This document shows, piece by piece, positions 32,787 through 49,823 of a stretch of DNA of 51,469 nt (its first letter is position 1; every line of letters begins with the position of its first letter). A program made the translations under genes and the position numbers. Under the pieces are notes generated by a model, which searched no databases, was not told the origin of the DNA, and saw only the letters and a list, made by a program, of their open reading frames with translations. Source of the DNA: Candidatus Hydrogenedentota bacterium (GTDB taxonomy: Bacteria; Hydrogenedentota; Hydrogenedentia; Hydrogenedentales; SLHB01); the NCBI GenBank assembly GCA_045863335.1, contig BTVY01000041.1, positions 16,446 to 67,914 of the forward strand. Direction: 5' to 3'.

Positions 32787-33719
32787 ATGGCCCGCCGCCG
32801 TAACCCTGCCGCTGTATGGATCTCGACTGCTGCCTCCATCGGATTCGGACGGATCGCATCGTATCTTCCGTTGCCCGTAGCCCGGGTTGCCGGCCGGGCC
32901 GCCGGACGCGTCTCCTATTGGCTGGTGCCCCGCGTTCGCAAGGTCGCGCTCGCCAATCTCGACCACGCTTACGGCGACCAGTTGACGGATACCGAGAAGC
33001 GCCGCATTGCCCGCGGCGCCGCGGAGAACGTGGGCATCGTGGCGGCGGAATTTTCCCGAATCCCTTTGCTCGACAGCGAAACCATACGCGATTACGTTCA
33101 ATTCACGGGTCTGGAGCACTTTGAGAAGAGCCGGGGAGCTTTTCTTATCAGCGCGCACCTCGCCAACTGGGAATGGATGGCCCCGGCACTAACGGCAATG
33201 GGGCTTCGATTGGCCGAGGTGGTCCGGCCCCTGGACGATCCGAGGTTGAATCGTTATGTTGATGCTACTCGAACCGCACAAGGTGTGCGTACCATCGGTA
33301 AAGAGCGTTCCGGCGCCGAAATTATGCGCCTGTTGAAGGATGGGTGGATTGTGGGGGTCTTGGTCGACCAGAGCCCGCGCGAGGCAGCCGTCCCCGTCAG
33401 GTTCTTCGGCCAGGCCTGCTGGGCAACCGTTGCTCCGGCCATGGTGGCCACGCGGGCGAAGGTGCCGATCCACGTCGTCACGATGGCGCGCGAGACTTCG
33501 GGCCGCTACACCATGACCATTTCGCCGCCCGTTGCGCTAAGCCGGACCGGAAACCTGCGGGAGGATTTGGTGGGAATGACCCAGCGGTGTCAGGATCTCA
33601 TCGAGGCCGAAATACGCAAGTATCCGGAGCAGTGGCTCTGGCTTCATCGGCGGTGGAAGGAACGGCCCCGGCTGGAGGCCGACTGGCAGGCCCGCGAAGC
33701 CAAAGACGCGGCGCGCTAA
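32787..33719 (+). CDS. Lipid A late acyltransferase family (LpxL/HtrB-like)
   Basis: SAHLANWE, LVDQ, VRFFG and PEQWLWLHRRWK; ATG 2 nt after the upstream stop. Confidence 0.9.
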   Translation: MARRRNPAAVWISTAASIGFGRIASYLPLPVARVAGRAAGRVSYWLVPRVRKVALANLDHAYGDQLTDTEKRRIARGAAENVGIVAAEFSRIPLLDSETIRDYVQFTGLEHFEKSRGAFLISAHLANWEWMAPALTAMGLRLAEVVRPLDDPRLNRYVDATRTAQGVRTIGKERSGAEIMRLLKDGWIVGVLVDQSPREAAVPVRFFGQACWATVAPAMVATRAKVPIHVVTMARETSGRYTMTISPPVALSRTGNLREDLVGMTQRCQDLIEAEIRKYPEQWLWLHRRWKERPRLEADWQAREAKDAAR

Positions 33720-34684
33720 ACCGGGTCACCCGGTTTCCATTCGAAGATCTTCTCGGGATGCTGGATGTAGTCATTCATGATATCCACGAACCCGAAGATG
33801 TCGCCGCCGTCCATGGCTCGGTGATCGAAGGTTACGGCGACCGTGACGATCTTCCTCGGAACGATTGCGCCGTTTACGACGCGCGGCAAGTCGCGTGTGA
33901 GACCGATGCCCCACATGAACGTGCTGGGCGGCGGGATGACCGTAACGGTCTGCCAACCGTCGACCGACATGCCGATATTGGCCACCGTGCAGGTGGAACC
34001 CACGACGTCCTTGGCCTGGAGCTTTTCCTCCTCCGGCACGTTCTTCACGTTGTCGGCCATGGGTTCCGGCCATAAGCATGACTTGGCCCAGAGCCAGCCG
34101 GCGGTGAATCCGGAGAAATCGAGTTCTCGAATCGCATAGCTCAAGTATTCCCACGCGCAACGCCGGTACAGCTCGTTCATGTCCGTGCGGCGGGACTTGC
34201 GGGTAAGGACCCGCATTTCGTTGGCGACCTCGACCAGCGTTTTCTGGTGAGGGTTGCGAATGATGGGCGCCATGACCCCCTGATTGGTGTGGACCGTGAA
34301 AGAGGGGCAGATGTCTTCGCATTCGTAGAGGTACCCGCCGTTGCGCAGCGGGGTCCATTCCATGAACGAATTCATGACCGGCATGTGGTAGAGCACGTGT
34401 CCGATCGTCTTTAGATAGAAGGCCGAGAAATTCTTGTGGACGGCCATGGTCGTAAGTTCGTCTGCCGAATGCTTCTTGCCGGAGGCCTTCATCTCGTCAA
34501 CGACGCGCTTGCCGTACTCGTGGAGGGGGGTCACATCGAATTCTACATTGCCCGCCGCATGCGGGATCTTGCGCGCGGAGATGGACAGAATGAACGCCAC
34601 GCTTTGCCGCTGGAACGAAAGCTTGCGGACGTTGCGCATGCGAATGTTCTTGCGGGCATATGAGATTGTGAAATTGCGGAACAT
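33716..34684 (-). CDS. Stand-alone 2-oxoacid dehydrogenase E2-type acyltransferase catalytic domain (no lipoyl domain)
   Basis: IPH....EFDVT.L, GVMAPIIRN, STCTVANIG and TFDHRAMDGG. Confidence 0.85.
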   Translation of the reverse strand: MFRNFTISYARKNIRMRNVRKLSFQRQSVAFILSISARKIPHAAGNVEFDVTPLHEYGKRVVDEMKASGKKHSADELTTMAVHKNFSAFYLKTIGHVLYHMPVMNSFMEWTPLRNGGYLYECEDICPSFTVHTNQGVMAPIIRNPHQKTLVEVANEMRVLTRKSRRTDMNELYRRCAWEYLSYAIRELDFSGFTAGWLWAKSCLWPEPMADNVKNVPEEEKLQAKDVVGSTCTVANIGMSVDGWQTVTVIPPPSTFMWGIGLTRDLPRVVNGAIVPRKIVTVAVTFDHRAMDGGDIFGFVDIMNDYIQHPEKIFEWKPGDPV

Positions 34685-35952: not shown

Positions 35953-36122
35953 CAGGAATTCCTCTACCCCCATCCGTGCCCGGTCCGGGTCCGCTCCGCG
36001 TAAGCACAGTAGTTTTCGTAGGATAGGGGAAAGTCGACGGTTGTTCAAGTCATGTCGTGCGCGTCGATTTCCGCGCGCCCGATTTAATTCGGACTACTGA
36101 GTCCGGTACCATCTCGGGATCT

Positions 36123-37346
36123 ATGAGTACTGCCCGATTACACCCCAAAGCCACGGTAGCCTTCCTATTGACAGGCCTTTACAGCGCGGCGGAAGCATTG
36201 TGTTCCATATTCGTGACCGTTTACCTGTGGATTAACAGCCATGATCTGAACCTCATTTGCCGGTACTACATAGCGTTATTCGTGATTACTCCCATCTTCT
36301 TCGTATTGGCGGGGTGGTACTCCCAGGTACGGGATCGGCTTCACGTCTACCGGCTGGGCCTCATCCTGCACGCGGTCTACTATGGCGCGCTGCTTCTCCT
36401 TCGGGAGCGTGCCCCGGACTACGCCGTGGCCCTCGGCGCGTTGCTGGGCGTCACCTGGGGCGCCTACTGGGGCGGCGCAAACACGATCAACTATGACGTG
36501 ACAACCCATGGGAAGCGAGAACTCTTCTACGGACTACTGGGCGCGGTCACCAACCTGGCGCGGCTCGCCGCGCCACCCCTCGGCGGGCTCATCATTCAGT
36601 TGTCGGACGATCGGCTGCAAGGGTATCACCGGCTGTTCGCGGCGGTGCTCGCGCTCTACATACTGGCCTTTGCGCTCAGCTATCGCTTACCGGAAGACAA
36701 AGAGCGGCGCCCGTTTCGAATCCGGCGCGCGCTGTTTCCCGGGCGCGATCAGGTGGACTGGCGCTACGTCATGCTGGCGTCTGCTTCATTGGCTGGATCG
36801 TTTCACATATTCAGCATCCTGCTGGGACTATTGATGTACCTGGAGACCAATGACGAGATCAGCGTGGGCGGGTTTGCATCGTACCAAGCGCTGGTTGCTA
36901 TCGCGGTATCCACGCTGCTTGGACGATACATGCGTCCAGCCACGCGCGGGCGGTATATGCTGATCGCGTCTCTGCTATTGTTCGCGGGAGGGTTTCTGTT
37001 TTTCACCGAGATAACCGCGATGACACTAATTGCCTTCGGATTGATCCGCTCCGCATCCATGTCCATGTTTGGCATCGGCCATTTCAGCCTGCGCATGGAG
37101 ATCATCGCCAACAGCGCCGAGGACCCCAGCCAGCGCATCGAGTATCTCTGCGCCTGGGAAATTCCCCTTGCCATCGGGCGCGTCGTCATGATGCTCTGTC
37201 TTATGGTGCTTTCCACGTACTTCGCGGAGAACGGCCTCGGAATACGTGCCGCGCTCTTCTTGCTGTGCTCGCTGAGACTCGTCACCTACGGGCTGCTCTC
37301 CCAGACCTCGCCGATCAAGAACCCGGAAGCGCTACGCGCGCTTTGA
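36123..37346 (+). CDS. MFS-type membrane transporter
   Basis: About 12 hydrophobic segments in two halves; G...GAYW and APPLGG; 407 aa. Confidence 0.8.
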   Translation: MSTARLHPKATVAFLLTGLYSAAEALCSIFVTVYLWINSHDLNLICRYYIALFVITPIFFVLAGWYSQVRDRLHVYRLGLILHAVYYGALLLLRERAPDYAVALGALLGVTWGAYWGGANTINYDVTTHGKRELFYGLLGAVTNLARLAAPPLGGLIIQLSDDRLQGYHRLFAAVLALYILAFALSYRLPEDKERRPFRIRRALFPGRDQVDWRYVMLASASLAGSFHIFSILLGLLMYLETNDEISVGGFASYQALVAIAVSTLLGRYMRPATRGRYMLIASLLLFAGGFLFFTEITAMTLIAFGLIRSASMSMFGIGHFSLRMEIIANSAEDPSQRIEYLCAWEIPLAIGRVVMMLCLMVLSTYFAENGLGIRAALFLLCSLRLVTYGLLSQTSPIKNPEALRAL

Positions 37347-37458
37347 CTGCCCGCGTGGGAGGCGCTATTCTTTGCGGATGAATCGTGTAACTGGCGTATC
37401 CTCGTATCCCTGCGCATCCGAAGTGGAGTGCGGTATCCCCTCGCGGGACCGCGCATAG

Positions 37459-39822
37459 TTGCCCGTGTCAACCCGCATTCCAGAACAGCGCATCCCCCCG
37501 GTACGCGGTATCGTCACCACGCACAATCAGTGGGGAAGACCCTTTAACCTCATCGATCTCAAGCGTTGGCTGAGACTCAATCGAATCGTCTTTAACGCCG
37601 AAAAGGTTGATATTCTGGCGGATGCGCGCACCTTTCAGCATATGCCCGCGCTGCTGGAGTACGCTTCGGAACTGGGCCTTCGGGTAAGCCTGCGCGTTGC
37701 CTGCACTGAGCCGGTGCCGGATATTTCGGCGTGGAAAGACCTTGGGCTGCTCGATGTCTTTGTCACCGCGCCGCTTCGTGGTTCCACCCAACTCGAACCA
37801 TGGTTGAATGCCTGCCGCGATACGGGCCTGCCGTGTCGCGTGGAAGTGGCTGGGCCTGCCGGAGGCGATTCCGATCCCGTAACGCTCGCGAAAACGCTGA
37901 TGGCGGAGTCCGTGACGGCGGTAAACGTCATGGCCTTCGATCCCTTCGTCAATACGGATCGAGCCAGCAACGGTGAACAGACGGCCGCAACCGTGGGGTC
38001 CATGAATGCGCTCGCACGCGCGGTTTCGGCCGAGGGTACGGAGGTCAATCTCGTCCATCTGCCGTTCTGCGCGGTGGAGGTAGATCTGAGGCCTCACGTC
38101 GTCAATAGCCGCCAGTTTTGGTTGGACCATCAGCAGTACAATAAGGGGTCCTACGATCTCGCGGTGTCGTTGTACCGAAACATTCCGGCCGCGGTGGGCA
38201 AGATACTGCTGATTTTACTTGCCCGTTCCACCTTTCAACGGACCTTCGTCGACGCGGTGCTGCTGCGTCTGCTGTTGCACTCCCGGCTGATTTACGGGTG
38301 GTCCGTGGCATTGCACAAACTCACCGGACACCTACGAAACCGGCTGGGCAAACCGCGCGAAACTGCACCGACATTGGAAGCGCACGCGCAGAACGTCGAG
38401 AAACTCCGCGAACGCGAGCGGCGAATGCTGGGCCCGATTTGCGCAGAATGCTCCTTGCGCCGCATCTGCGATCGCATTCTTCCGGATGTGCGCCGCGTGT
38501 TGCCTGATATGGCGATTGAGGCGGTGCCGGGCGAACTGGTCGTGTCACCGATGCACTTCGCCCTCGCGCAACCCAAGCATTTCGATATCATTGACGCCGA
38601 ACGAATGACCGTGAGCGAGGGCGCAGCCGAACTCGTCAAAGAAGCGAACGCGTTGGTTGAGAACCGTGCGCCCGACCGCCAGATCATGCCCTACGAATAC
38701 ACGGTTGAGGGCGCGCCCTGGGAGCATCTGGAAGGCGGCGTTCGCTGGCATTCCATTACCAACACCGAGAAGCTCAGTTCGCCGCTCGGGTTTGTCGAGC
38801 CGCCTTTCACGATCTCCGTCACCTTCGGCGGAGGCATTGCCGAATACATCGGACTGAGCTTCGGGCGCCACTGCAAATTACTCTGCCCCATGGAAGGGTA
38901 TCGTCACATTCTCGTTTTGCACGTGGATCGCGATGGGCACTACGTGCTCCTGCGCGACGGCAAACAGGTCCGGCCCGTGGAGTTCGAGGGGATGTTCTAC
39001 GTCCCGTTGCGACTGGGCGGACGGTTGGAGCCGCGCATTTCCATCTGGAATATCGACGCGCAGATCGTCACGCAATTCGTGAAGATTTGGGACGTAGAAA
39101 GCGTCGATGCGACCGCGCCTCCGGAGGTCAAGTACTCAATCATCGTCGTCAATTCCCGGTACGCGCGCCGGCTCCAGGCCATGCTGCGCAGCATCGCGCA
39201 CCAGGAAGGAATCGACATTCGGAAGATCGAGGTTATCATCGCCTACATTCCGGGACTGGACGCGACGGATGATCTGATCGACAGCATGAATCAGACCTAT
39301 CCGGATCTGCGTATCCTCCGGTCGCCGTTCCCCGCGCAGAATGCCAATTCCAAAGGGTTCATGATCAACGAGTCCGCCCAGATGGCGTCGGGCGAGTGGA
39401 TCGTATTGATGGACGCCGATATCGTGATTGCGCCGGACATGTTCGCGCGCATTGAGGCGGTCGCCGGCGAGAACGATTTTATCGCGGCGGACGGGCGATT
39501 GATGCTGAGCAAGGAAACCACGGCAAAGGTTCTCATGGGCGAAGCGGAACCCTGGCGTCAATGGCAGGAACTCGTCAACAGCGCCTCGGAATACCGTTAC
39601 CGCGAAGCCAAAGGCGTGCCCGTTGGATTCTTCCAATGCTTTAAGCGCGCGTTCATGGACAAAGTGAAGTACGCTGAGTTGGACCATTTTGAAGGCGCGG
39701 ATATGTGGTTTGGCATGGCGTTGCAGGACACGTACGGTAAGGAGACCCGGTTGAGCGGGTCGCCGGTGCTTCATCTGGATCATGGCGGCAGCCAGTGGTA
39801 CGGTACGACGAAGCATTTCTAG
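37459..39822 (+). CDS. Multidomain protein A: radical-SAM-like barrel without CxxxCxxC + CxxCx5C + middle domain + GT-A glycosyltransferase
   Basis: LPFC and GPICAECSLRRICD; C-terminal YSIIVV, KGFMINE, MDADI (DxD), FEGAD and LHLDH. Confidence 0.75.
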   Translation: MPVSTRIPEQRIPPVRGIVTTHNQWGRPFNLIDLKRWLRLNRIVFNAEKVDILADARTFQHMPALLEYASELGLRVSLRVACTEPVPDISAWKDLGLLDVFVTAPLRGSTQLEPWLNACRDTGLPCRVEVAGPAGGDSDPVTLAKTLMAESVTAVNVMAFDPFVNTDRASNGEQTAATVGSMNALARAVSAEGTEVNLVHLPFCAVEVDLRPHVVNSRQFWLDHQQYNKGSYDLAVSLYRNIPAAVGKILLILLARSTFQRTFVDAVLLRLLLHSRLIYGWSVALHKLTGHLRNRLGKPRETAPTLEAHAQNVEKLRERERRMLGPICAECSLRRICDRILPDVRRVLPDMAIEAVPGELVVSPMHFALAQPKHFDIIDAERMTVSEGAAELVKEANALVENRAPDRQIMPYEYTVEGAPWEHLEGGVRWHSITNTEKLSSPLGFVEPPFTISVTFGGGIAEYIGLSFGRHCKLLCPMEGYRHILVLHVDRDGHYVLLRDGKQVRPVEFEGMFYVPLRLGGRLEPRISIWNIDAQIVTQFVKIWDVESVDATAPPEVKYSIIVVNSRYARRLQAMLRSIAHQEGIDIRKIEVIIAYIPGLDATDDLIDSMNQTYPDLRILRSPFPAQNANSKGFMINESAQMASGEWIVLMDADIVIAPDMFARIEAVAGENDFIAADGRLMLSKETTAKVLMGEAEPWRQWQELVNSASEYRYREAKGVPVGFFQCFKRAFMDKVKYAELDHFEGADMWFGMALQDTYGKETRLSGSPVLHLDHGGSQWYGTTKHF

Positions 39823-39835
39823 CGGGGACAACATC

Positions 39836-42184
39836 GTGACAGCAGCAACACGAGCGCGGCCATTGACGCCCGTGCGCGGGCTGGTCCTGGCGCAGAATGC
39901 CAAGGGCAAGCCCGTTTCGACGGTCGATCTGCAGCGATGGATCCGGCTGAACCGCGTCGTCTATAAAACCGAGAAGATCGACGTGCTCTTCCAGGGCTGC
40001 GATTGGGCTCGATTTGAATCGTTGGCATCCGCCGCTCGCGAACTCGATGTGGCGTTGAGTCTTCGCACGGACTGCTCCGAACCTCCGCCGTCCGCGAATG
40101 AACTGCAACAGGCAGCGCCCTGGGACGTATTTCTGTTTCCCGCAAAACCGGAAGCGCCGCAGTTTGTTGTATGGCTTCGCGCGGCGCAGGAGGCGAGCAT
40201 CCCCGCTCGGGTACAGATCTGCGGCCCCTTTGAACACGACCTCGACGTGGACGCGTTCGCGGATACGCTCGTTGCCCATGATGTAGTGTCGGTCAATGTT
40301 GCGGCGTACGATCCGATCGCGTCTAATGCGCCCTCGCGTAACGCGCGACACACGGAATCGACCATCGATCGCATCAACGCGCTGGCTGCGGCATGCCATG
40401 CGCGGGGCCTGGAAACCAACCTTCTGTGGCTGCCGTTTTGCGAAGTAGCCGAACCCAACCGGAAGCTTGCCCTCAACAGTAAGCAGTTTTTCGTGGACCA
40501 TCAACAGTACCAGCGCGATTCGTACACGTTGGCGGAGAAGTTGTGCGCGCGGCATCCGCATCGAATTCGTCTCGCGATCCTGATGCATCTCGAGCGATCG
40601 ACGTCGACCGGAAATCCTATCGACCGCATTCTGCTCCCCTGGATCATGGAACACCCCTGGGCGCGCGCGCGGGTTTGGGCGTTTCATAAACTGACCCGGC
40701 ACCGCCGCCAGGGCATGCCTCCGGCGCAGACCGAACCGTCACCCGCGGAGTACATGCTTGCCGCAGAACGTGCGAGCGACGAGCGCCGGCATGCGAAAGG
40801 CCCCATCTGCGCGGAATGCAGCCTGCACCGCATCTGCGACGGGCTGAGGCCGGAACTCGCGAAAGCGTTGCCCGGCATTGGAATCACCGCGCAACCGGGC
40901 GAGGCCGTGCTGGACCCCTTCCATTTTGCTGAAGAAAGGCCCCGGCATTTTGACAGCATCGATGAAGCGCGCCGGACCGCCGGACCGGATGAGGCTTTGG
41001 TCGAGGAGGCCAATGCGCTCGTGCTGAATCGCGCGCCGGATCGGGAGATCGGAGCGTTCGACTACCGCGCGGAAGGAACCTGGAGTTGGCCCTTGCCGGG
41101 TTGTCTGCGCTGGTTCTCCTTCACAAACAGCGAGAAGATCAGCACGCCGCTCACGCGCATCGATCCGCCGTTTACGTTGTCCGTCACCTTTGGCGGAGGT
41201 ATCGCGGAGTATATCGGGTTCGCGATTGGGCGGGGTTGCCGCCTGGTGTGCCCCATGACCGCGTATAGCCATCGCGTCTTGTTACACGTCGCTGCGGATG
41301 GACGCTACGTTTTGCTCCGCGATGGGGAGCCGGTTTCGCCGGTCCAGTTTGTAGGCTCCTACTACGCCCCGGCGCGCCTGGGCAAGGCGCTGGAGCCGCG
41401 CATTTCGATCTGGAACATCGACGGGACGATCGGCACGCAGGCCGTCTACCTGTGGCAGGGAGAAGTAGCGGAGACCGGGCCGCCTCCGATGCGGTTCTCC
41501 GTGGTCGTGGTCAGCACGCGTTACGCCCGGCGGCTTCAGGCGTGCCTCGAAAACCTGGTCCATCAGGAGGGCGTCGAGTTGAACGACATTGAGGTCATCG
41601 TGGCGTACGTGCCTGGCCTCGACGCCACGGAAGACGTCATCGACAGTATGCAACTCGCCCATCCGGAACTGCGGATCGTTCCAACTGCGTTTGCGCCGGA
41701 GCACGCGAAGACCAAAGGCCTGTTGCTCAATGAATGCCTCGGCAGAGCGCAGGGCGATTGGGTCCTCGTATTGGACGCGGACATCCTGCTCGCACCGAAC
41801 ATGCTGGCGAAGATGGCCAAACTTCCGGACGACTGTATGTTTACCATCCCCGACGGCAGGAAGATGTTGAGCCGCGAAGACACCGCGCGGGTACTGCTCG
41901 GCGAAGTCCGTCCGTGGGAGCAGTGGGAGACCCTGTTGCAGTCCGCGGGCGAATACCGCATGCGCGAAGCGGACGGCGTCCCCGTCGGGTATTGCCAATG
42001 CGTAAGGCGAGCGTGCCTCGATAAGGTTCAGTACGAGGAGATGCACCACTTCGAAGGGGCGGACTGGAAGTTCGGGAAAGACATGCGCGATACCTTCGGC
42101 ATGGAAAAGCGGCTCAGCGGAGTTCCTGTGCTCCACCTCGACCACGGCAGCAGCAACTGGTATGGCGCCGTTCGGCATTTTTGA
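39836..42184 (+). CDS. Multidomain protein B, tandem paralogue of protein A
   Basis: Same blocks: PVRG, DL.RW.RLNR, DHQQY, HKLT, GPICAECSL.RICD, SVTFGGGIAEYIG, LEPRISIWNID, LDADI, FEGAD and LHLDHG; GTG start after GGGGA. Confidence 0.75.
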   Translation: MTAATRARPLTPVRGLVLAQNAKGKPVSTVDLQRWIRLNRVVYKTEKIDVLFQGCDWARFESLASAARELDVALSLRTDCSEPPPSANELQQAAPWDVFLFPAKPEAPQFVVWLRAAQEASIPARVQICGPFEHDLDVDAFADTLVAHDVVSVNVAAYDPIASNAPSRNARHTESTIDRINALAAACHARGLETNLLWLPFCEVAEPNRKLALNSKQFFVDHQQYQRDSYTLAEKLCARHPHRIRLAILMHLERSTSTGNPIDRILLPWIMEHPWARARVWAFHKLTRHRRQGMPPAQTEPSPAEYMLAAERASDERRHAKGPICAECSLHRICDGLRPELAKALPGIGITAQPGEAVLDPFHFAEERPRHFDSIDEARRTAGPDEALVEEANALVLNRAPDREIGAFDYRAEGTWSWPLPGCLRWFSFTNSEKISTPLTRIDPPFTLSVTFGGGIAEYIGFAIGRGCRLVCPMTAYSHRVLLHVAADGRYVLLRDGEPVSPVQFVGSYYAPARLGKALEPRISIWNIDGTIGTQAVYLWQGEVAETGPPPMRFSVVVVSTRYARRLQACLENLVHQEGVELNDIEVIVAYVPGLDATEDVIDSMQLAHPELRIVPTAFAPEHAKTKGLLLNECLGRAQGDWVLVLDADILLAPNMLAKMAKLPDDCMFTIPDGRKMLSREDTARVLLGEVRPWEQWETLLQSAGEYRMREADGVPVGYCQCVRRACLDKVQYEEMHHFEGADWKFGKDMRDTFGMEKRLSGVPVLHLDHGSSNWYGAVRHF

Positions 42185-42379
42185 ACCTCGCTCTATTCTA
42201 ACTCATTTCTCCTCAGTCCTTTATGTTCGAAGGTTGTGCATTTCTCGGACTTAGGCTATTGTAGGTGCTCCGGGTGTGCGGGGCTGCTCCTCTCGTGATT
42301 GTCGTTCTTCGCGAACGTGCGCAACGTAATCCGGCTGCAAGGTAGACCAGGGCAAAACCGGTAATCGCAGGGGATTCGT

Positions 42380-45300
42380 ATGCGCATTCAAACCATGTCT
42401 CGAAGTGCGGTCGTTCTGGCTGCCGTAGCGCTCGTGGGGGCGACGGCGTCGGCACAAGGGGGCTTCCTGAATTTCGAGTCGCCTCAGGTACATCCGGTCG
42501 ATCTCAGTCCGGACGGGACGACACTGGCGGTCTGCAATACGGCGGACGACATGCTCGAGTTGTTCGATGTAAGCGGCGGGGTGCCGGTTCATGCGGGAAG
42601 CGTTGCGGTCGGAATCGATCCGGTTTCCGTACGCTTCCGTACCAACGCCGAAGTCTGGGTCGTGAACCACATCTCCGATTCGGTGAGTGTCGTCGACGTG
42701 GTTGCGCAACACGTATTCGGCACGCTGACTACCTTGGATGAACCTGCCGACGTGGTCTTCGCCGGGGCTCCGACCATGGCATTCGTTTCGTGCTCACAGG
42801 CGAACACGATCCAGCGGTTCGACCCGGGCAATTTCGCTGCTCCCCCCACGAGTATTGCGATTGAAGCGGAAGACCCCCGGGCGCTGGCGGTGAGTCCGGA
42901 TGGCATGACGGTTTACGCGGCGATCTTCGAATCCGGAAACGGCTCAACGTTGATTGCCGGCGGTAACGACGGCACGCTCGGCGGCTTCCCGACCAACGCG
43001 GCGATGGAAGACGCCGGCAATCCGTACGGTGGTGTCAACCCGCCGCCAAACGATCCTACCGACTCCAACATGGACAGCAACTTCTGGATTCCTGCCAAAG
43101 CGGCTAATGGAACACCCCCGCCGGTCGGCCTCATTGTAAAGAAGGACAGCGGCGGCGCATGGCGCGACGACAATGGTGAAGACTGGACGCCCTGGATCAC
43201 GGGTGCCAGCGCCGGTCTTTCGGGCCGTTACACGGGCTGGGACTTGATCGACCGCGATGTGGCGATTGTCACGGCATTGAACGCGCCCACGCCCGCCGTC
43301 GCGTACGCGGAAGAACTCATGAATGTTTGCATGGCCCTCGCGGTGAACCCGGCCAGCGGCGACATCACCGTTGTTGGTACGGACGGCATCAACGAGGTCC
43401 GCTTCGAACCCAACGTCAATGGCCGTTTCCTGCGCGTCAACATCGGCATCGTCGACGACGCCTCGCCCACGACCACGAGTGTCGTCGACTTGAACGCCGA
43501 GCATCTGGCGCTCGCGCAACCAGGCGGCGTCGACCCTTATGAGACACCGGCCGTTTCGCAAGTGGATCGCGACAAGTCCATCGGTGATCCGCGCGGCATC
43601 GTCTGGAACAGCGCCGGCACCCGCGGCTACATCACCGGCATGGGCTCAAACAATCTGGTTGTTGTCGATGCCAACGGCGACCGCGTGGTCACGGGAGCCA
43701 CCACGGAACTGCGGCCGGGGCCGACGGGCCTTGTGTTGAGCCAGGACGAAACCCGGCTCTATGTGTTGAATCGTTTTGATGCGTCGGTTTCGGTCTTAGA
43801 TACGACCACGCTTCTAGAAACGGCCAACGTGCCCTTCCACGATTCGACCCCCATGTCCATTCGTACCGGCCGCAAACATCTCTACGATACCCACAAGAAT
43901 TCTGGCCTCGGCCATGTCGCGTGTGCGTCCTGCCACGTAGACGGACGAATGGATCGCCTTGCGTGGGACTTGGGCGATCCCTCCGGTGCGATCAAGCCCT
44001 TGTCCGGCACGGGGAACCCGCCGCAACACAATCTTGGCGCGAACATTCCGGGACTGTTAGAAGGTGGAACCTCGCCCGCATTCGAAGACTTCCATCCCAT
44101 GAAGGGGCCTATGACGACTCAGACCCTGATTGACATCATCGGCAAAGAGCCATTCCACTGGCGCGGCGATCGCGATGGTCTTGAAGAGTTCAACGATGCC
44201 TTCATGACCTTGCAGGGAGACGACCAGATCCTGACGCCGCAGGAGATGCAGGAGTTCGAAGACTTCCTGGCGACGACCCACTTCCCGCCAAACCCGTTCC
44301 GCAACTTCGACAATACGTTGCCGACCAACTTGCCGCTGCCGGGTCAGTTCTCCAACGGGCGTTTCTTTGGATCGGGTGGGCTCGCGGAAGGCGCTGCGCT
44401 TCCAAACGGCGACGCGGTGCGCGGTCTGGAGATCTACCGGGATCAGGGCAACAAACTCGATAGCGGAAACTTCACCTGCGTAATCTGCCACACCCTTCCG
44501 ACCGGCGCAGGGACGGACAGCCGGTTCGACGGAGTGTCCGCATTCGATCCGATTCCGCCAGGTCCTATGGGCGAACGTCATCTGGCGCTGGTCTCGGTGG
44601 ATGGCTCTACAAATCGCGCCATCAAAACGCCTCAACTGCGCAACCAATACGACAAAGCGGGTTTCGAGTTGACGCCAGGAAATCCGAGCCTCGCCGGATT
44701 CGGGCTGCTCCATGACGGCAGCATTGACTCCATATCCCGTTTCGTATCGGAACCTGTATTCGAAGTGACGTCGGACCAGGATGTGGCCGATCTGACGGCG
44801 TTGATTATGGCGTTTTCCGGGGGCTTCGACTTCGCACCGCCCAATCCGGGACCAGACCCCGAGGCCCCAGGGCCGCCGAGCCAGGACGTCCCGGCTGCGG
44901 TCGGCAAGCAAGACACCATCGACAGCGCCGCGAAGGATGTGAGTTTAATCAATGCCATGATCGCCTTGGCGGACGCGGGAGACGTGGACGTCATTGCGAA
45001 GAGCCTGATCGCCGGCGACCCACGCGGATGGGTCTACACCGGGTCTGGACAGTTCACGGGCGATCGAGCCGACGAGCCGGCATACCCCACCGCCTCTCTC
45101 GTTGCACTGGCCGCGCCGGGCAACGAAGTCACGTTCACCGTCGAACCGGCAGGCTCCGGCCAGCGCACGGGCATCGACCGGGATCGCGACAACCTCCTGA
45201 ACTACGACGAGACGCGCGATCTCGACCCCGTTACCCCAGGGGTGCAAAACCCCTTCGATCCGGCCAGCGCAGACTCCACCGGAGACAACGGACAGAACAC

Positions 45301-45511
45301 GCCCGACGGCATCCCGGACAATTTCAATGACTACGACGGCGACGGGTTCAGCAATGCGGCGGAGTTCTTCGCGGGGACCAACCCCGCGGACGAGAATGAT
45401 CTGCCGGGAGTACCGACCCAATCCAGGTGGGGATTGATACTGCTCGTCGCGATGATGATTGCGGGATCAACGCGGGTTGCGGTTCGTTCCCGTACGAAGC
45501 AGACGGATTGA
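42380..45511 (+). CDS. Secreted beta-propeller + di-heme c-type cytochrome protein with acidic Ca-binding-like repeats and IPTL-CTERM-like tail
   Basis: Signal peptide; NFESPQVHP and YVTN-like blades; CASCH and CVICH; DRDRDN and DYDGDG repeats; VPTQSRWGLILLVAMM...RSR tail. Confidence 0.82.
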   Translation: MRIQTMSRSAVVLAAVALVGATASAQGGFLNFESPQVHPVDLSPDGTTLAVCNTADDMLELFDVSGGVPVHAGSVAVGIDPVSVRFRTNAEVWVVNHISDSVSVVDVVAQHVFGTLTTLDEPADVVFAGAPTMAFVSCSQANTIQRFDPGNFAAPPTSIAIEAEDPRALAVSPDGMTVYAAIFESGNGSTLIAGGNDGTLGGFPTNAAMEDAGNPYGGVNPPPNDPTDSNMDSNFWIPAKAANGTPPPVGLIVKKDSGGAWRDDNGEDWTPWITGASAGLSGRYTGWDLIDRDVAIVTALNAPTPAVAYAEELMNVCMALAVNPASGDITVVGTDGINEVRFEPNVNGRFLRVNIGIVDDASPTTTSVVDLNAEHLALAQPGGVDPYETPAVSQVDRDKSIGDPRGIVWNSAGTRGYITGMGSNNLVVVDANGDRVVTGATTELRPGPTGLVLSQDETRLYVLNRFDASVSVLDTTTLLETANVPFHDSTPMSIRTGRKHLYDTHKNSGLGHVACASCHVDGRMDRLAWDLGDPSGAIKPLSGTGNPPQHNLGANIPGLLEGGTSPAFEDFHPMKGPMTTQTLIDIIGKEPFHWRGDRDGLEEFNDAFMTLQGDDQILTPQEMQEFEDFLATTHFPPNPFRNFDNTLPTNLPLPGQFSNGRFFGSGGLAEGAALPNGDAVRGLEIYRDQGNKLDSGNFTCVICHTLPTGAGTDSRFDGVSAFDPIPPGPMGERHLALVSVDGSTNRAIKTPQLRNQYDKAGFELTPGNPSLAGFGLLHDGSIDSISRFVSEPVFEVTSDQDVADLTALIMAFSGGFDFAPPNPGPDPEAPGPPSQDVPAAVGKQDTIDSAAKDVSLINAMIALADAGDVDVIAKSLIAGDPRGWVYTGSGQFTGDRADEPAYPTASLVALAAPGNEVTFTVEPAGSGQRTGIDRDRDNLLNYDETRDLDPVTPGVQNPFDPASADSTGDNGQNTPDGIPDNFNDYDGDGFSNAAEFFAGTNPADENDLPGVPTQSRWGLILLVAMMIAGSTRVAVRSRTKQTD

Positions 45512-45534
45512 GCGGCGTACTTACTTCGCCGTTA

Positions 45535-46047
45535 CTATTCGTCGCGGTAAGTTGAAAGCAGATCTAGATAGGATCCGGTTTCAAGATCGCTTTCGGCGAT
45601 CTCGAACTCCGTTCGCAGAAACGAGAGCTTTGCGAAGCCGTCTTGGTCGCCAAATTCATCGGACAAGACCGCCTCGAACTCCAGGTAATCGCCGAGCCCC
45701 ACGACCCGGTCGATATGGATTCGAACGTTCCGCCACAACCACAAGGTGCGGACCTTGTCGACGACGCCCATCGTGCCAAGGGCCGCGGCGAGGGTCTCCT
45801 TCAAGGTGGAAGACGCGGGTTCGATGAAATAGTCGCTGGCCTTTGAATCGGCCACGTCGGGACGCCGGTAGTAGACGAGATAGTCCTCGCCCGAATCGCA
45901 CTCCCGCAGTTTCATGCGCCCGTTCGCCACGGGGAAATAGGTGTCGACTTGGTGGATGTCGCCCTTCGGCTCGGCACCAATGCGCGCACAGACGGCGAGC
46001 GCGTGGGAACGATCGCGGAGGCGCGCCTTGAGTTCGATATTGCGCAT
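45535..46047 (-). CDS. CYTH domain protein (class IV adenylate cyclase/triphosphatase family)
   Basis: NIELKAR, QVDTYF, KLRE, K.RTLW and HIDRVVGLGDYLEFE. Confidence 0.9.
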   Translation of the reverse strand: MRNIELKARLRDRSHALAVCARIGAEPKGDIHQVDTYFPVANGRMKLRECDSGEDYLVYYRRPDVADSKASDYFIEPASSTLKETLAAALGTMGVVDKVRTLWLWRNVRIHIDRVVGLGDYLEFEAVLSDEFGDQDGFAKLSFLRTEFEIAESDLETGSYLDLLSTYRDE

Positions 46048-46062
46048 GGGGGCGGTGGTCCG

Positions 46063-46749
46063 TCAGACCGTCTTGCGCGCAGCGGCTACGTCCGCCTTGA
46101 ACTGCGTGAACGTCTCGCCCAAGCTGCCGTTGTTCTTGAAGATACTCGAGGTGCCCATCACAAAAATGCGCGCGCCCATATTGGCCAACACGGCGGCATT
46201 GTGGACGTCGATATTGCCGTCCACCTCGATATCGATGCGCCGCTCCCGGTAATCCACGTTCTCCTTCAGGATCTTTACCCGTTCGAAAGCGCCCGGAATA
46301 ATGCGCTGCCCCGCGTAACCGGGATCGACGGTCATGACCATGATGCGGTCGACATAATCCAGCAGGAAGTCCAGCTTCGTAAGCGGCGTCGCGGGATTGA
46401 TGGCAATGGCGGGTGAAGCGCCGGCCGCGCGAATTTGATCTAGCGTGCGGTGCGCGTGCGGGCAGGTCTCCACATGCACAGACACCACGTCGCAGCCCGC
46501 GTCGACGAAGCGCTCAATGTAGTCTTCCGGTTTCGTAATCATCAGGTGGGCGTGACAGGGCAACCCGCACACGCCCTTGGCGGCCTTGATGAAGTCCACG
46601 CCCAGCGTGAAGTTCGGGACGAACAGGCCGTCCATGATGTCGAAGTGCAGTTCGTCGCATCCGGCCGCTTCGAGGGCCTTCAGATCCTCTTCCAACCGCG
46701 CGAGGTTCGCGCACATGACCGAGGCGGCGTATTTCAGTTCATCCGGCAC
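46063..46749 (-). CDS. rpe: Ribulose-phosphate 3-epimerase
   Basis: HFDIMDGLFVPN, HLM, AINPATP, VMTVDPGYAGQ and EVDG. Confidence 0.93.
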   Translation of the reverse strand: MPDELKYAASVMCANLARLEEDLKALEAAGCDELHFDIMDGLFVPNFTLGVDFIKAAKGVCGLPCHAHLMITKPEDYIERFVDAGCDVVSVHVETCPHAHRTLDQIRAAGASPAIAINPATPLTKLDFLLDYVDRIMVMTVDPGYAGQRIIPGAFERVKILKENVDYRERRIDIEVDGNIDVHNAAVLANMGARIFVMGTSSIFKNNGSLGETFTQFKADVAAARKTV

Positions 46750-46753
46750 GGGT

Positions 46754-47680
46754 TTAGTGTCCTTTCTGTTTCAGGAAATCGTCCACGGTGGCGCGATGCG
46801 GCATGGACCGCTGCGCGCCGTGCATGGTGGTCGCCAGCGCGCCGGTTGCGTTCGCAAAACGAATGGCCTCAAGCGGCGGCTTACGGCGCCACGCGATGGT
46901 CAGGGCCGCGGTGAAGGCATCGCCCGCGGCCACCGTGTCCACGGCTTCCACCTGGTAGGCGGGCACGTGAATCCATTCCTTACCGCTCATGTACAGTGCC
47001 CCGCCGGCGCCCATCTTGATGACCGCACTCTTGGCGCCCATGGCGAGCAGTTGCGCCGCCGCCTGGCGCGCGTCATCTACGGTGCTGACGGCGACGCCGG
47101 TCATCGCTTCCGCCTCGGTTTCGTTCGGGGACACAATGTCCGCCAACTCGACGATCGATTCGGGGACCTTCTGCGCCGGGCCCGCATCGAGCACCGACAG
47201 CACATTGGCCGCACGCGCTTTACGAAGCAGGGCCTCGACCGTTTCCAACGGGATCTCGAGTTGCGTCATCACGGCGTCGAGCGTCTCGAACAGGGGGCTG
47301 AGCTTTTCGATGTGCGCGGGCGTGATCCCGTAGTTCGCGGCAGGCGTCACGATGATGGAGTTTTGCCCCTCGTCGGCGACCATGATTACCGCGGTCCCGG
47401 TAGGTTCCTCGGGGTGTTTGTTCAGGTACGTGAGATCGATGCCTTCCTCGCTCAAGGTCTGCCGCTGCAAGGTGCCGAACGTGTCGTTCCCCACGCACCC
47501 GGCAAAATGGACCTGCGCCCCAAGCCGCGCCGCCGCCACTGCCTGATTCGCGCCCTTACCGCCGCAGACCGTCGAGAAGGACGAACCGATCATGGATTCG
47601 CCGGGTTTGGGGCAACGGGGGACGCGCGTAACCAGATCGATATTGGCACTTCCCACCACCAGGATTCGCGGCGTCGTCAC
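46754..47680 (-). CDS. rbsK: Ribokinase
   Basis: VVGSANIDLV, GGKGANQAVAAARLG, QLEIP, PNETEA and DTVAAGDAF; GTG start after GGAGGAG. Confidence 0.94.
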   Translation of the reverse strand: MTTPRILVVGSANIDLVTRVPRCPKPGESMIGSSFSTVCGGKGANQAVAAARLGAQVHFAGCVGNDTFGTLQRQTLSEEGIDLTYLNKHPEEPTGTAVIMVADEGQNSIIVTPAANYGITPAHIEKLSPLFETLDAVMTQLEIPLETVEALLRKARAANVLSVLDAGPAQKVPESIVELADIVSPNETEAEAMTGVAVSTVDDARQAAAQLLAMGAKSAVIKMGAGGALYMSGKEWIHVPAYQVEAVDTVAAGDAFTAALTIAWRRKPPLEAIRFANATGALATTMHGAQRSMPHRATVDDFLKQKGH

Positions 47681-47770
47681 GGGTTCTCCTCCAGTTGGCA
47701 AATTTGGAGGAATCATCCCACGATTGGCGTGGAACAGGCAAGGCGGATGTGATTCGGCTCAGGCGAGCGG

Positions 47771-48967
47771 CTACTTCGCCGCGAGACTCTCTTCATTTTC
47801 CGGTTCGGGCGTGGGGGAGATGACGGCGGGTTTGTCGTCGGCTGCCTTGCCGCGGTACTCAATCTCGCAACAGCCGCGGCAAACCGCAAACCCGCTCTCG
47901 CGGCGCTTCTGCCGGAAGGCGCGCATGATCTCGTTGTTCCGCAGTTCCTTCAGGCTGTGCTCGCGCACGTTGCCGACCTTTTGAATCCAGCATGGATAGA
48001 CGCCGCCCTTCGCGCCCACGATGAGCGTCGACCAAATCGACCGGCACTCGAATTCGCGAAGGTTGTATCCCTGATCGTAGTGGTTGATGACTTCCTCGAA
48101 GGGCATGCGCGGCATGCGGACCTCGATGCCGAGTTTCTTCGCTTCCGCCATGGTCGCCCGCAACGAATCCTCGAGGCGTTTCCGGTCAATCCGCGGCTGA
48201 CGAAAATCGTCGCGGCTGAAGCTCGAGGGATCGACATGCCCGAGTTCCGGGATATCGTGGACCCGCGTTTCCGTCAGCAGGTTCAACACGTTCGCGCCGC
48301 ATTCCTGGGCGATCTTCGGCATCTCGGGCAGACAATCCAGGCTCTCGTCCTGAATCACCGTGTTGATGTGAATAAGGGGACTCTTCTTACCCATTTCTTT
48401 CCGGTACTTGGAAAGCATCTTGATGCCGTGGATGCTCTTGTCGAAAGACCCCTTCTGCGCGCGGATCACGTCGTGCACGTCGCGCGTGCCGTCGATGGAA
48501 ATCCCCGCGAAGTTGAAGCCGCGCCCGCCGAACCATTTCGGCGCCAGCTCCACACAGCGCTTGGCGCGTTCCTCCGTCAGCATCGTCGCGTTGGAGATGA
48601 AGTGAACGCGCCGCTTCGCGCACGCGTGTTCGAATATCTCCATAAAGTCCTTGCGAACGAAGACCTCGCCGCCGGTAAATGTGATGAGGCTCCAGCGTCC
48701 GGTCTGGTTGATGACGTTCAACCATTCTTCCGTGGTCAATTCGCCGTCAGCCTGAACACGCGTGGGGACCGTCTGAAGCCAGTCGATGTATTGGCACATC
48801 TTGCAGCGGAGATTGCAGCGGCGGGTGACCTCGAAGTAGTAGTGCCAGGTGGGAGGACCGTACGCGTCACGCGAAAAGCGGTAGGGGAGTTCCGTGTACG
48901 AACGCGTGACGGCCCGGTAAAGCGAGGTAATGAATCCCCGTTCGTTTGGATCTGGCGACGCGCCCAC
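47771..48967 (-). CDS. Radical SAM enzyme with SPASM/twitch-type C-terminal domain
   Basis: EVTRRCNLRCKMC, FTGGE, ISIDG...HD.IR; C...GGVYPC...GNV...CRGCC. Confidence 0.92.
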   Translation of the reverse strand: MGASPDPNERGFITSLYRAVTRSYTELPYRFSRDAYGPPTWHYYFEVTRRCNLRCKMCQYIDWLQTVPTRVQADGELTTEEWLNVINQTGRWSLITFTGGEVFVRKDFMEIFEHACAKRRVHFISNATMLTEERAKRCVELAPKWFGGRGFNFAGISIDGTRDVHDVIRAQKGSFDKSIHGIKMLSKYRKEMGKKSPLIHINTVIQDESLDCLPEMPKIAQECGANVLNLLTETRVHDIPELGHVDPSSFSRDDFRQPRIDRKRLEDSLRATMAEAKKLGIEVRMPRMPFEEVINHYDQGYNLREFECRSIWSTLIVGAKGGVYPCWIQKVGNVREHSLKELRNNEIMRAFRQKRRESGFAVCRGCCEIEYRGKAADDKPAVISPTPEPENEESLAAK

Positions 48968-49145
48968 AACCTACTCCCTGTCGTAACCTCTTTTGCCTAA
49001 GGGTTTTCCGTCGTTCGCGACGAGCGCGAAAGACGCAAAATATTCCCGTAAGGCAACACCCGCCCTGGCAAGGTGAATTCCCTCCCCAGAGCATCGTCAT
49101 CAAGCACACCATCCTAGGCGGATAACCGGTCGATTGCAATTCGCA

Positions 49146-49817: not shown

Positions 49818-49823
49818 GGTCGA

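Follow-up and report, generated by a model that had tools for sequence, protein, structure and literature searches.

Radical-SAM (rSAM) enzymes are among the largest enzyme superfamilies and, to our knowledge, catalytically dead members with a retained function have hardly been documented. An annotated precedent for an rSAM-like family called 'pseudo' exists in NCBIfam, where TIGR04347 bears the name 'pseudo-SAM/SPASM protein', presumably after the loss of its cluster-binding Cys motif. Among glycosyltransferases, GT2 enzymes with accessory domains include TarS (5tze), TarP (6h4m), RmlT (8bz5), K4CP (2z87), WrtF (9omh) and SpsA (1h7l); K4CP is a chondroitin polymerase, and the TarS group consists of wall-teichoic-acid and polysaccharide GT2 enzymes. 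Here we analysed a window of 51,469 nucleotides from a Candidatus Hydrogenedentota bacterium (contig BTVY01000041.1) in which two tandem genes, A and B, are predicted to encode glycosyltransferases preceded by a disabled rSAM domain. The original prediction, made from the letters of the window alone, had called this architecture a candidate undescribed family, and our searches agree: no paper on a dead-rSAM/glycosyltransferase architecture was found in full-text literature searches, the passages of PMC7159879 that we read do not mention a fusion of this kind, and the GT2 part is all that Pfam and NCBIfam recognise in the proteins. TIGR04347 itself matches neither A nor B at E ≤ 1.

Both genes lie on the forward strand. 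Gene A (P0001; 37459-39822) has an open reading frame of 787 aa from a TTG, whose product matches a 787-aa database protein at 100%; the starts of homologues point to GTG 37465, two codons past the TTG, as the probable true start, giving 785 aa. Its TAG stop occupies 39820-39822, and the GTG of gene B (39836-42184; 782 aa) follows 13 nt beyond. GTG 39836 is the most plausible start of gene B, the longest open reading frame opening at ATG 39782. The two had been described as paralogues of ~785 aa, 13 nt apart and collinear, and indeed BLASTP aligns them over their full length with 370 of 776 identities (48%), 3 gaps and E = 0. Identity varies by domain: 38% in the rSAM-derived domain, 57% in a beta-rich middle domain and 54% in the GT-A domain. 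The motifs quoted at the outset (LPFC, GPICAECSL(R/H)RICD, SVTFGGGIAEYIG, LEPRISIWNID, DAD, FEGAD and HLDH) likewise occur in both proteins. Contigs of an RNA-labelled run (X1) cover positions 36000-46100 evenly, in 30 of 30 bins, and a run of unknown kind (X4) does so similarly, which reports the presence of the sequence, not its transcription; run X5 has no matches to this region and run X6 has matches of 18-22 letters only.

In the family tree, a single branch (SH-aLRT 98) splits 12 of 12 first copies, the A-type clade to which gene A belongs, from 12 of 12 second copies, the B-type clade. Judged from this phylogeny, the pair is the product of a single old duplication. Single-copy genes make up most of the tree, and A-type and B-type genes also occur together in one assembly though unlinked (L008 with L023, L009 with L042, and L033 with L021). 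Only three sites are conserved within the two clades and different between them, so the specificity of the two types has not clearly diverged.

The N-terminal part of each protein, residues 12-372 of A (37492-38574, forward strand) and its counterpart in B (39863-40942, forward strand), is by profile comparison a true homologue of a live rSAM family. A profile of 78 N-terminal sequences aligned by hhalign with the neighbouring live rSAM family at a probability of 99.2% and E 1.9e-19; the alignment spans 332 columns (positions 19-360 of the query and 57-413 of the template's 426). When the same profile was run by hmmsearch over 1.84 billion proteins, it returned 185 matches, and 33 of the 38 distant matches scanned pass Pfam Radical_SAM (PF04055). 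Residues conserved on both sides are R16, G17, D51, L65, D99, R127, P162, F163, P202 and C204, followed by N216, Q219, D223, C328, C331, C337, D338, P364 and D379. The live family, represented by P0268 on contig C65 of this genome and by WP_456471070.1 of Caminibacter sp., is the nearest relative and is itself uncharacterised; WP_456471070.1 is named only 'radical SAM protein', and no NCBIfam model reaches its cut-off for this family. The two families are alike in ~340 collinear residues, in LPxC and Cx2Cx5CD, in their conserved strand residues and in having genes that are often adjacent.

What separates them is the catalytic apparatus. In radical SAM enzymes the three Cys of CxxxCxxC, behind strand 1, bind the [4Fe-4S] cluster that cleaves SAM, and GGE, behind strand 2, touches the amino group of SAM. 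Live rSAM proteins carry CNxxCxFC and IQGGEPT, whereas the fusion family has neither, and CxxxCxxC and GGE are absent from both A and B. The loop 'GQTCNxxCxFCYF', present in all 24 aligned live relatives, is a gap in 82 of 82 family sequences, a deletion of ~20 residues having taken it out, and where the live relatives have an invariant G142-G143-E144-P145, the family varies ('ILADA-RT' in A). This homology and these losses uphold the dead rSAM scaffold that had been proposed for the N terminus. The proposal also got the beta/alpha barrel pattern right but not its extent: in place of ~220 aa, the barrel together with its helical and Cys-bearing region spans ~360 aa. In the AlphaFold2 models (pLDDT 85.8 at full length and 91.2 for the N-terminal part alone), seven beta/alpha units (residues 16-199) are followed by the helical region, beta-rich strands at 407-545 and a GT-A domain at 559-772, and the N-terminal units display the partial (beta/alpha)6 TIM-barrel fold of the radical SAM superfamily. 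The Foldseek matches of the N-terminal model, generic TIM barrels and HydE at E ~1e-5, are not decisive. Searches with the proteins themselves were silent over this part: PF04055 matches neither A nor B at E ≤ 1, Pfam and NCBIfam match nothing in residues 1-555 of the whole proteins, and PDB sequence searches with a single protein or with the N-terminal profile gave chance matches only.

Of two candidate sources of the dead domain, one was rejected: the rSAM/SPASM family of the gene at 47771-48967 reaches an hhalign probability of only 54% (E 1e-4). Descent as a copy of the neighbouring live rSAM is not supported by a tree of rSAM and rSAM-like domains, in which the A/B dead domain, with a stem as long as 3.28 changes per site, falls beyond every live row and away from the Hydrogenedentota live clade. 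The tree therefore supports membership in the same family, but not a copy of the neighbour.

Four Cys survived these losses. Cys204 of 'LPFC' in A (38068-38070, forward strand; 78 of 82 family sequences) corresponds to invariant C311 of the live relatives, and Cys328-x2-Cys331-x5-Cys337 (GPICAECSLRRICD; 38440-38469, forward strand; 77, 78 and 77 of 82, respectively) aligns with their invariant C429, C432 and C438. Protein B retains LPFC and, in place of GPICAECSLRRICD, GPICAECSLHRICD. The motifs are thus conserved in homologues, as the original prediction required, and C204 with C328, C331 and C337 would form a putative auxiliary metal or Fe-S site. Their description as 'SPASM/twitch-like' stands as a motif resemblance only, because Pfam SPASM (PF13186) gives no match to A or B at E ≤ 1; scans of two proteins from the live sister family were likewise without a match at E ≤ 0.001. 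SPASM domains have the pattern CX2CX5CX3C plus further Cys; A and B possess Cx2Cx5C and a fourth Cys, that of LPFC, ~124 residues upstream, and have no x3C. Conserved in or near the barrel strands of the fusion family alone are N23, W37, R39, K49, S77, R79, W115, H224, Y227 and D265.

Behind the barrel comes a conserved beta-rich domain (A residues 373-555, 38575-39123; B 40943-41488; both forward strand) that no family matched. In A it holds SVTFGGGIAEYIG, LEPRISIWNID and the near-invariant C476 (78 of 82 sequences), and mean column identity reaches 56% (alignment A3, 78 sequences). Pfam at E ≤ 10 found no middle-domain match among five members, and a PDB profile search with this domain yielded one chance match (E 1.6). 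ESM Atlas features for PelX_N, 3-keto-disaccharide hydrolase and a sialidase CBM scored 0.86-0.87, below the 0.9 mark, and serve as leads only. Structure searches run with the full-length model are filled by GT-A matches. The longest full-model Foldseek matches were GlfT2 (4fix), POMGNT1 (5ggf) and B4GALNT1 (9h6k), covering 410-497 columns at an rmsd of 15-23 Å, with the galactofuranosyltransferase GlfT2 at the top (410 columns, E 1.8e-10, rmsd 23). The length of these matches to the model hints, as a lead, that the middle domain plus GT-A may resemble the beta-domain plus GT-A arrangement of the three enzymes; all three are missing from the top 50 of the VIA second look.

The C-terminal domain is a GT2 enzyme by its Pfam score, its DxD motif and its GT-A fold. 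In A (residues 556-787, 39124-39819, forward strand) the DxD is D652-A-D654 at 39412-39420, accompanied by HFEGAD and HLDH; B (41489-42181, forward strand) has DAD, HFEGAD and HLDH. PF13641 scores 38 bits on A and 45.1 on B (cut-off 27), and PF00535 scores 36 and 37.1 bits (cut-off 23.3). On this motif and profile evidence the domain is intact in both proteins and is predicted to transfer a glycosyl group from an NDP-sugar. Its best structural matches are polymer-modifying GT2 enzymes. A search for transmembrane helices found none, the highest 19-residue Kyte-Doolittle mean being 1.5.

The family is close to universal in its lineage. Among 126 genomes of the phylum Hydrogenedentota that are at least 80% complete, 118 have a member at E ≤ 1e-8 and 117 have one with a best E ≤ 1e-46, all 117 belonging to the window's own order. 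The family is found in 83 of the 86 high-quality genomes and in 59 of 63 genera. A recurrent gene order comprises a Wzm/Wzt ABC exporter, the live rSAM, the fusion gene and GT4 genes; within 9 kb of 70 loci we counted GT4 (25), ABC_tran ATPase (19), ABC2_membrane (6), live rSAM (13) and rSAM/SPASM (10) genes. Read from coordinates, 30 genomes have the live rSAM as the gene just before the fusion, in the same orientation and at a gap of 46-409 nt. In the window's genome, ABC2_membrane, an 800-aa ABC ATPase and the live rSAM form one operon on another contig, and in the window's lineage the A/B pair lies not beside it but amid MFS, GFO oxidoreductase, acyltransferase and GT2 genes. At E ≤ 1e-60 the live rSAM is absent from two families (f8, 0 of 10; f10, 0 of 14) and a genus (g28, 0 of 8) that have kept the fusion, so no role that depends on what the live enzyme makes can apply to the family as a whole. 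The analysis picked out no lipid-carrier priming enzyme and no glycan product. The window also contains a bona fide radical SAM/SPASM gene with CNLRCKMC (47771-48967, reverse strand; Pfam Radical_SAM 67 bits, SPASM 42 bits), relatives of which stand directly upstream of a family gene in some other genomes. For two conserved small neighbours, of 158 and 340 aa, relaxed Pfam searches gave nothing solid.

The explanation we favour, at a probability of roughly 0.55, is that A and B are soluble cytoplasmic GT2 enzymes of an ABC-dependent envelope-glycan pathway whose dead barrel binds an acceptor or other ligand. The two paralogues would be DxD-dependent glycosyltransferases in which the GT-A catalytic domain stands after two accessory domains, first the rSAM-derived and then the beta-rich one. 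The rSAM-derived domain would be incapable of radical-SAM chemistry, its cluster loop being deleted and its GGE SAM-binding motif lost; the barrel is kept together with strand residues R16, D51, D99 and R127 and the four-Cys site, all of them common to the live enzymes. The pathway would make a glycan exported by a Wzm/Wzt-type transporter, and its other participants would be GT4 enzymes, joined in many genomes by the live rSAM. In this scheme the dead barrel may hold an acceptor or other ligand of the class bound by the live enzymes and present it to the GT-A site, and the four-Cys site would accommodate Zn or an Fe-S cluster in a structural role. We infer both the glycan substrate and a division of labour between A and B. 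Counting against this explanation, no part of the proteins is less conserved than the dead domain, with an A/B identity of 38% as against 54-57% elsewhere; the lineages f8, f10 and g28, which keep the fusion without the live rSAM, and the position of the A/B pair away from the ABC/rSAM operon in the window's lineage count against it as well.

Alternatively, the same domain may not be inert but have acquired a new, non-radical function, either as an enzyme in the remodelled barrel or as a sensor of iron or of Fe-S redox state by which the glycosyltransferase is turned on and off. The polar residues conserved only in the fusion family (the set from N23 to D265), their position in or near the barrel strands, the retention of the four Cys in 77-78 of 82 sequences and the persistence of the domain in 59 of 63 genera would all fit. 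However, Pfam, NCBIfam and PDB profile searches recognised no known catalytic motif, its rate of evolution exceeds that of the other two domains, and the four Cys were inherited and not newly acquired, because the live enzymes carry the same four; we consider an active domain of this kind unlikely. Less likely still is a pure scaffold, a role common among pseudoenzymes, that would support an A/B heteromer or dock the live rSAM or other pathway proteins. The joint retention of A-type and B-type copies even where they are unlinked, the lack of a clear divergence in specificity between the clades and the 30 genomes in which the live rSAM gene immediately precedes the fusion speak for it, but the family tree is mostly one of single-copy genes and at least 28 genomes carry the fusion without the live rSAM. 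Prediction of a complex between A's dead domain and residues 72-486 of the live rSAM gave a score of 0.00, which is uninformative on binding.

Two further readings concern the substrate and the chemistry. Glycosylation of a peptide or small metabolite, as in the SunS/sublancin and MftF/mycofactocin systems and with the rSAM/SPASM neighbours as maturases, is improbable in our judgement. The GT domain weakly matches SunS (PDB 7msp, E 0.08; TIGR04195, E 0.012) and an MftF-like model (TIGR04283, E 0.0025), and an rSAM/SPASM gene is directly upstream in six loci (L056, L058, L065, L067, L068 and L072). These SunS- and MftF-type matches are nevertheless far below family cut-offs, the transporter is of the ABC-2 (Wzm/Wzt-like) glycopolymer type and is accompanied by GT4 genes, polymer-modifying GT2 enzymes are the best structural matches, and the near-universal single-locus distribution is more in keeping with an envelope component than with a natural product. 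We give hardly any credence to a domain that still works as an rSAM enzyme with its cluster held by non-canonical cysteines. Non-canonical cluster ligation does occur in a few SAM-radical enzymes, and four conserved Cys remain here; but in the live relatives the same four coexist with CxxxCxxC and so are not its replacement, with all four as ligands SAM would find no open iron, GGE is lost along with other invariant residues of the live enzymes, and the Pfam Radical_SAM model finds nothing at E ≤ 1. All three refuting conditions that the original prediction had named were put to the test, and none overturned its reading of a dead rSAM domain joined to a glycosyltransferase.

The favoured reading of a ligand-binding dead barrel has a bolder extension, which we hold tentatively and regard as doubtful: the disabled barrel might be a 'reader' in which the ancestral substrate pocket and an auxiliary Fe-S cluster recognise the glycan or sugar acted on by such enzymes, so that transfer would be gated by, or directed to, a radical-SAM-type substrate, and pseudo-rSAM domains might be a general and so far unrecognised class of carbohydrate-recognition domain. 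Two other proteins bear on this. In P0210 (1174 aa) and P0250 (899 aa), too, a glycosyltransferase is joined to a domain of this rSAM family, here a Cys-less copy, but their glycosyltransferase is of the GT-B class and their domain order is different. In the tree of rSAM and rSAM-like domains, the dead domains of these two group as a clade of their own inside the live enzymes (87/88), with the A/B family apart (100/100), so that the inactivation was independent. The same rSAM family has thus been inactivated and fused to a glycosyltransferase at least twice, once with GT2 and once with GT-B, on which account a pseudo-rSAM class would be general.

The A/B family offers a clean case of a dead rSAM domain, with live relatives identified and often adjacent, with the loss mapped precisely to the cluster loop and GGE, and with conservation that has lasted, the family being present in 59 of the 63 genera of an order that is mostly uncultured. 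It gives entry to three questions: what use an rSAM scaffold has once its chemistry is gone, in what way GT2 enzymes are steered by their accessory domains, and what envelope glycan may be a hallmark of Hydrogenedentota. It also exposes an annotation gap, in that ~550 of 785 residues lack a domain name in proteins filed as 'glycosyltransferase'.

TarS, TarP, RmlT, K4CP, WrtF and SpsA share with A and B the plan of a GT2 enzyme with accessory domains, at a sequence identity of only 14-17%, and none has an rSAM-derived domain or a beta-rich domain of the A/B type. The accessory domains of TarS, TarP and RmlT are C-terminal, in contrast to the N-terminal ones of A and B. GlfT2, POMGNT1 and B4GALNT1 are likewise devoid of a radical-SAM-like domain. 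Within the same rSAM family, a live rSAM-GT2 fusion exists as well (P0248; MCK7467667.1 from a Desulfosudis oleivorans MAG); unlike A and B, this live fusion is built without the beta-rich middle domain.

Genes A and B lie in tandem on the plus strand of the window. The long ORF of A (37459-39822) encodes 787 residues from a TTG start, with homologues beginning at the position of the GTG at 37465, while homologues of B (long ORF 39782-42184) begin at the position of the GTG at 39836. With the start of B set in this way, 13 nt separate it from the TAG of A, and their products share 48% identity across a 776-residue alignment containing three gaps, in agreement with the adjoining paralogues of the original prediction. 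The motifs quoted there were all found in both proteins, and both indeed lack the CxxxCxxC and GGE kept by live radical-SAM (rSAM) relatives. The predicted glycosyltransferase domain also held up: only GT2 Pfam models match A and B (about 558-750, above cut-offs), residues 1-555 have no Pfam match at E<=1, and NCBIfam returned only GT2 equivalogs, far below threshold. About 550 of the 785 residues are without any Pfam or NCBIfam model.

A word-indexed search across 5.8 billion proteins yielded 139 relatives, of which 120 were listed. Most of those listed are about 780 aa long and the remainder are shorter fragments; the named ones come from Hydrogenedentota or FCB MAGs and are called 'glycosyltransferase' or 'hypothetical protein'. 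The AlphaFold2 model (56-sequence alignment; pLDDT 85.8, pTM 0.82) contains seven beta/alpha units (residues 16-199 of A), a helical region (208-330, weak at 259-301), a beta-rich domain (407-545), and a GT-A domain (559-772); residues 12-372 folded alone reached a pLDDT of 91.2. Conservation measured as the average frequency of the commonest residue falls from 0.65 in the GT-A domain to 0.58 in the middle domain and 0.48 in the N-terminal domain. The middle domain (residues 373-555) is strongly conserved, with a mean column identity of 56% versus 43% for the N-terminal part, and is as unassigned as had been claimed, having no Pfam match at E<=10 and no PDB sequence match; the Atlas gave only sub-threshold leads, to beta-sandwich carbohydrate-binding families.

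Sequence gives the decisive evidence that the N-terminal domain is homologous to radical-SAM enzymes but dead. A profile of residues 12-372, cut out of 78 family members via their loci, aligned in hhalign with the live rSAM family, bona fide radical-SAM proteins adjoining the fusion gene in other genomes, at a probability of 99.2% (E 1.9e-19, 332 columns). When 1.84 billion proteins were searched with this profile by hmmsearch, 185 matched at E<=0.001; 75 of these, at E<=1e-30, are the fusion family itself, and 33 of the 38 weaker matches scanned pass Pfam Radical_SAM. We are highly confident of the architecture and of the radical-SAM homology. In a joint alignment with the live relatives, the 'WLGQTCNxxCxFCYF...HPEH' loop is gone from all 82 family sequences through a deletion of about 20 residues, 'IQGGEPT' has given way to variable residues, and a second deletion removes 12 residues after the 'SLHG' strand. 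Kept in the fusion family are R16, G17, D51, D99, R127, P162-F163, the LPxC Cys, N216, Q219, D223, and Cx2Cx5CD. That the domain performs residual radical chemistry strikes us as highly improbable.

The four Cys were expected to be conserved among homologues, and each occurs in 77-78 of the 82 family sequences. Since they are invariant in the live relatives on top of those enzymes' own CxxxCxxC, they are inherited, as a putative auxiliary site, and do not stand in for the catalytic cluster. Their description as 'SPASM/twitch-like' survives as a resemblance of Cys motifs only, because Pfam SPASM matches neither the fusion family nor the live relatives.

Inactivation occurred at least twice, independently: when 43 rSAM(-like) domains were placed in a tree, the A/B family grouped as a single clade (100/100) with a very long stem, and dead domains fused to GT-B glycosyltransferases grouped as a second clade nested within the live enzymes (87/88). 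The latter include P0210 (1174 aa) and P0250 (899 aa), in which a Cys-less domain of the same rSAM family carries 'RRGVLWLGDQADARW' where the cluster loop would stand. Live fusions also exist: P0257 (1077 aa) has two Radical_SAM stretches and one GT2 stretch, and P0248 (MCK7467667.1, 714 aa, from a Desulfosudis oleivorans MAG) joins a live rSAM of the same family, with CNQKCAFC and IQGGEPT, directly to GT2 and, unlike A and B, has no middle domain.

When one genome from each of 185,579 species was scanned, 153 stretches proved to encode relatives; Hydrogenedentota MAGs supply nearly all of the 74 loci retained. Among 126 genomes of this phylum at least 80% complete, the N-terminal profile matches 118 at E<=1e-8 (best E<=1e-46 in 117); the fusion family occurs in 83 of the 86 genomes rated high-quality, spans 59 of 63 genera, and is found in neither of the two sampled genomes from other orders. 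Several loci (L001, L012, L019, L020, L035, L068, L071, and others) bear Nitrospiraceae/Nitrospirales, Bathyarchaeia, Omnitrophota, or Rhodothermaeota titles, with genes that nest within clades otherwise labelled Hydrogenedentota; the L001 copy is 94% identical to gene A. The probable explanation is mislabelling or mis-binning of the MAG contigs, not gene transfer.

A tree built from 82 family proteins splits 12 of 12 first-position from 12 of 12 second-position copies on one branch (SH-aLRT 98), which indicates a single old duplication with conserved gene order; three assemblies hold A-type and B-type copies on separate contigs. Only three conserved sites differ between the clades (E425P, M749W, and K785R), and A and B have diverged most in the dead domain, at 38% identity versus 54-57% in the other two. 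These figures are compatible with a heteromer or with distinct specificities but demonstrate neither, and that the dead domain is purely a scaffold or heteromerisation module seems to us unlikely.

Neighbours clustered within 9 kb of 70 loci include GT4 glycosyltransferases (25), a 700-800-aa ABC ATPase (19), a 158-aa protein without family (14), the live rSAM family (13), rSAM/SPASM proteins (10), and an ABC-2 permease (6). At E<=1e-60, 81 of 126 phylum genomes have the live rSAM; read from coordinates, it stands directly upstream of the fusion gene on the same strand in 30 of these 81. At that threshold families f8 (0/10) and f10 (0/14) and genus g28 (0/8) lack it but keep the fusion gene (10/10, 13/14, and 5/8), so the fusion gene is independent of it. 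The basal single-copy loci L056, L058, and L065 form a larger conserved cluster: a 340-aa protein without assignment, a beta-helix (NosD-like) protein, ABC-2 permease, ABC ATPase, and GT2, then two divergent rSAM/SPASM genes, the fusion gene, and two GT4 genes, and finally the 158-aa protein, a 3-keto-disaccharide hydrolase, and GT2.

Besides A and B, the genome that carries the window (6.75 Mb, completeness 99.4%) has a single live copy, P0268 (CNLRCYFC and IQGGEPT), which lies in an operon with an ABC-2 permease and an 800-aa ABC ATPase (contig C65, 5045-12247). This ATPase has a long extension past its ATPase domain, and an 844-aa BNR/3-keto-disaccharide-hydrolase protein follows the operon. 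A and B themselves are surrounded by MFS transporter, GFO-type oxidoreductase, acyltransferase, and GT2 genes, an arrangement common only to close relatives. RNA-labelled contigs contain sequence of this region, which indicates its presence, not transcription. Between B and a CYTH gene lies a gene (42380-45511, plus strand) whose 1043-aa product combines a lactonase-type beta-propeller with a bacterial TSP3 repeat; it looks like a lineage-specific insertion, since in L001 and L003, both close relatives (the former with copies of A and B 92-94% identical), CYTH directly follows B. The minus-strand run at 45535-50732 comprises CYTH, ribulose-phosphate 3-epimerase, PfkB kinase, a bona fide radical SAM/SPASM protein (47771-48967, CNLRCKMC), and SAM hydroxide adenosyltransferase (49824-50732); this SAM-cleaving hydrolase may be functionally paired with the nearby rSAM/SPASM protein. 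A 322-aa protein (33716-34684, minus strand) has only a 2-oxoacid dehydrogenase acyltransferase (E2) catalytic domain, with no lipoyl domain detected, and its gene adjoins an LpxL-like lipid A acyltransferase gene and a metallo-beta-lactamase/beta-CASP gene.

We propose that A/B would be a cytoplasmic GT2 enzyme in an ABC-transporter-dependent envelope-glycan pathway, a hallmark of the order. Two accessory domains would steer the GT-A catalytic domain of this enzyme, and the disabled barrel most likely holds the acceptor or a related ligand (probability of the whole proposal about 0.55). Ligand binding is favoured because the barrel keeps strand residues and the Cys site common to the uncharacterised live enzymes. 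An N-terminal domain turned to a new function or to sensing is a rather doubtful alternative, though a slightly better one than the scaffold or heteromerisation module, and peptide glycosylation seems improbable.

With respect to known systems, GlfT2, POMGNT1, and B4GALNT1 are the longest Foldseek matches to the full model and hint at a beta-domain plus GT-A arrangement, a likeness unconfirmed in a second structural comparison. In line with the novelty originally claimed, neither full-text literature searches nor PMC7159879 passages yielded a description of a dead-rSAM-GT fusion. The NCBIfam model TIGR04347, 'pseudo-SAM/SPASM', which A and B do not match, is a precedent by name only. We see in A/B a GT2 enzyme whose pseudoenzyme accessory domain comes from an unexpected superfamily.
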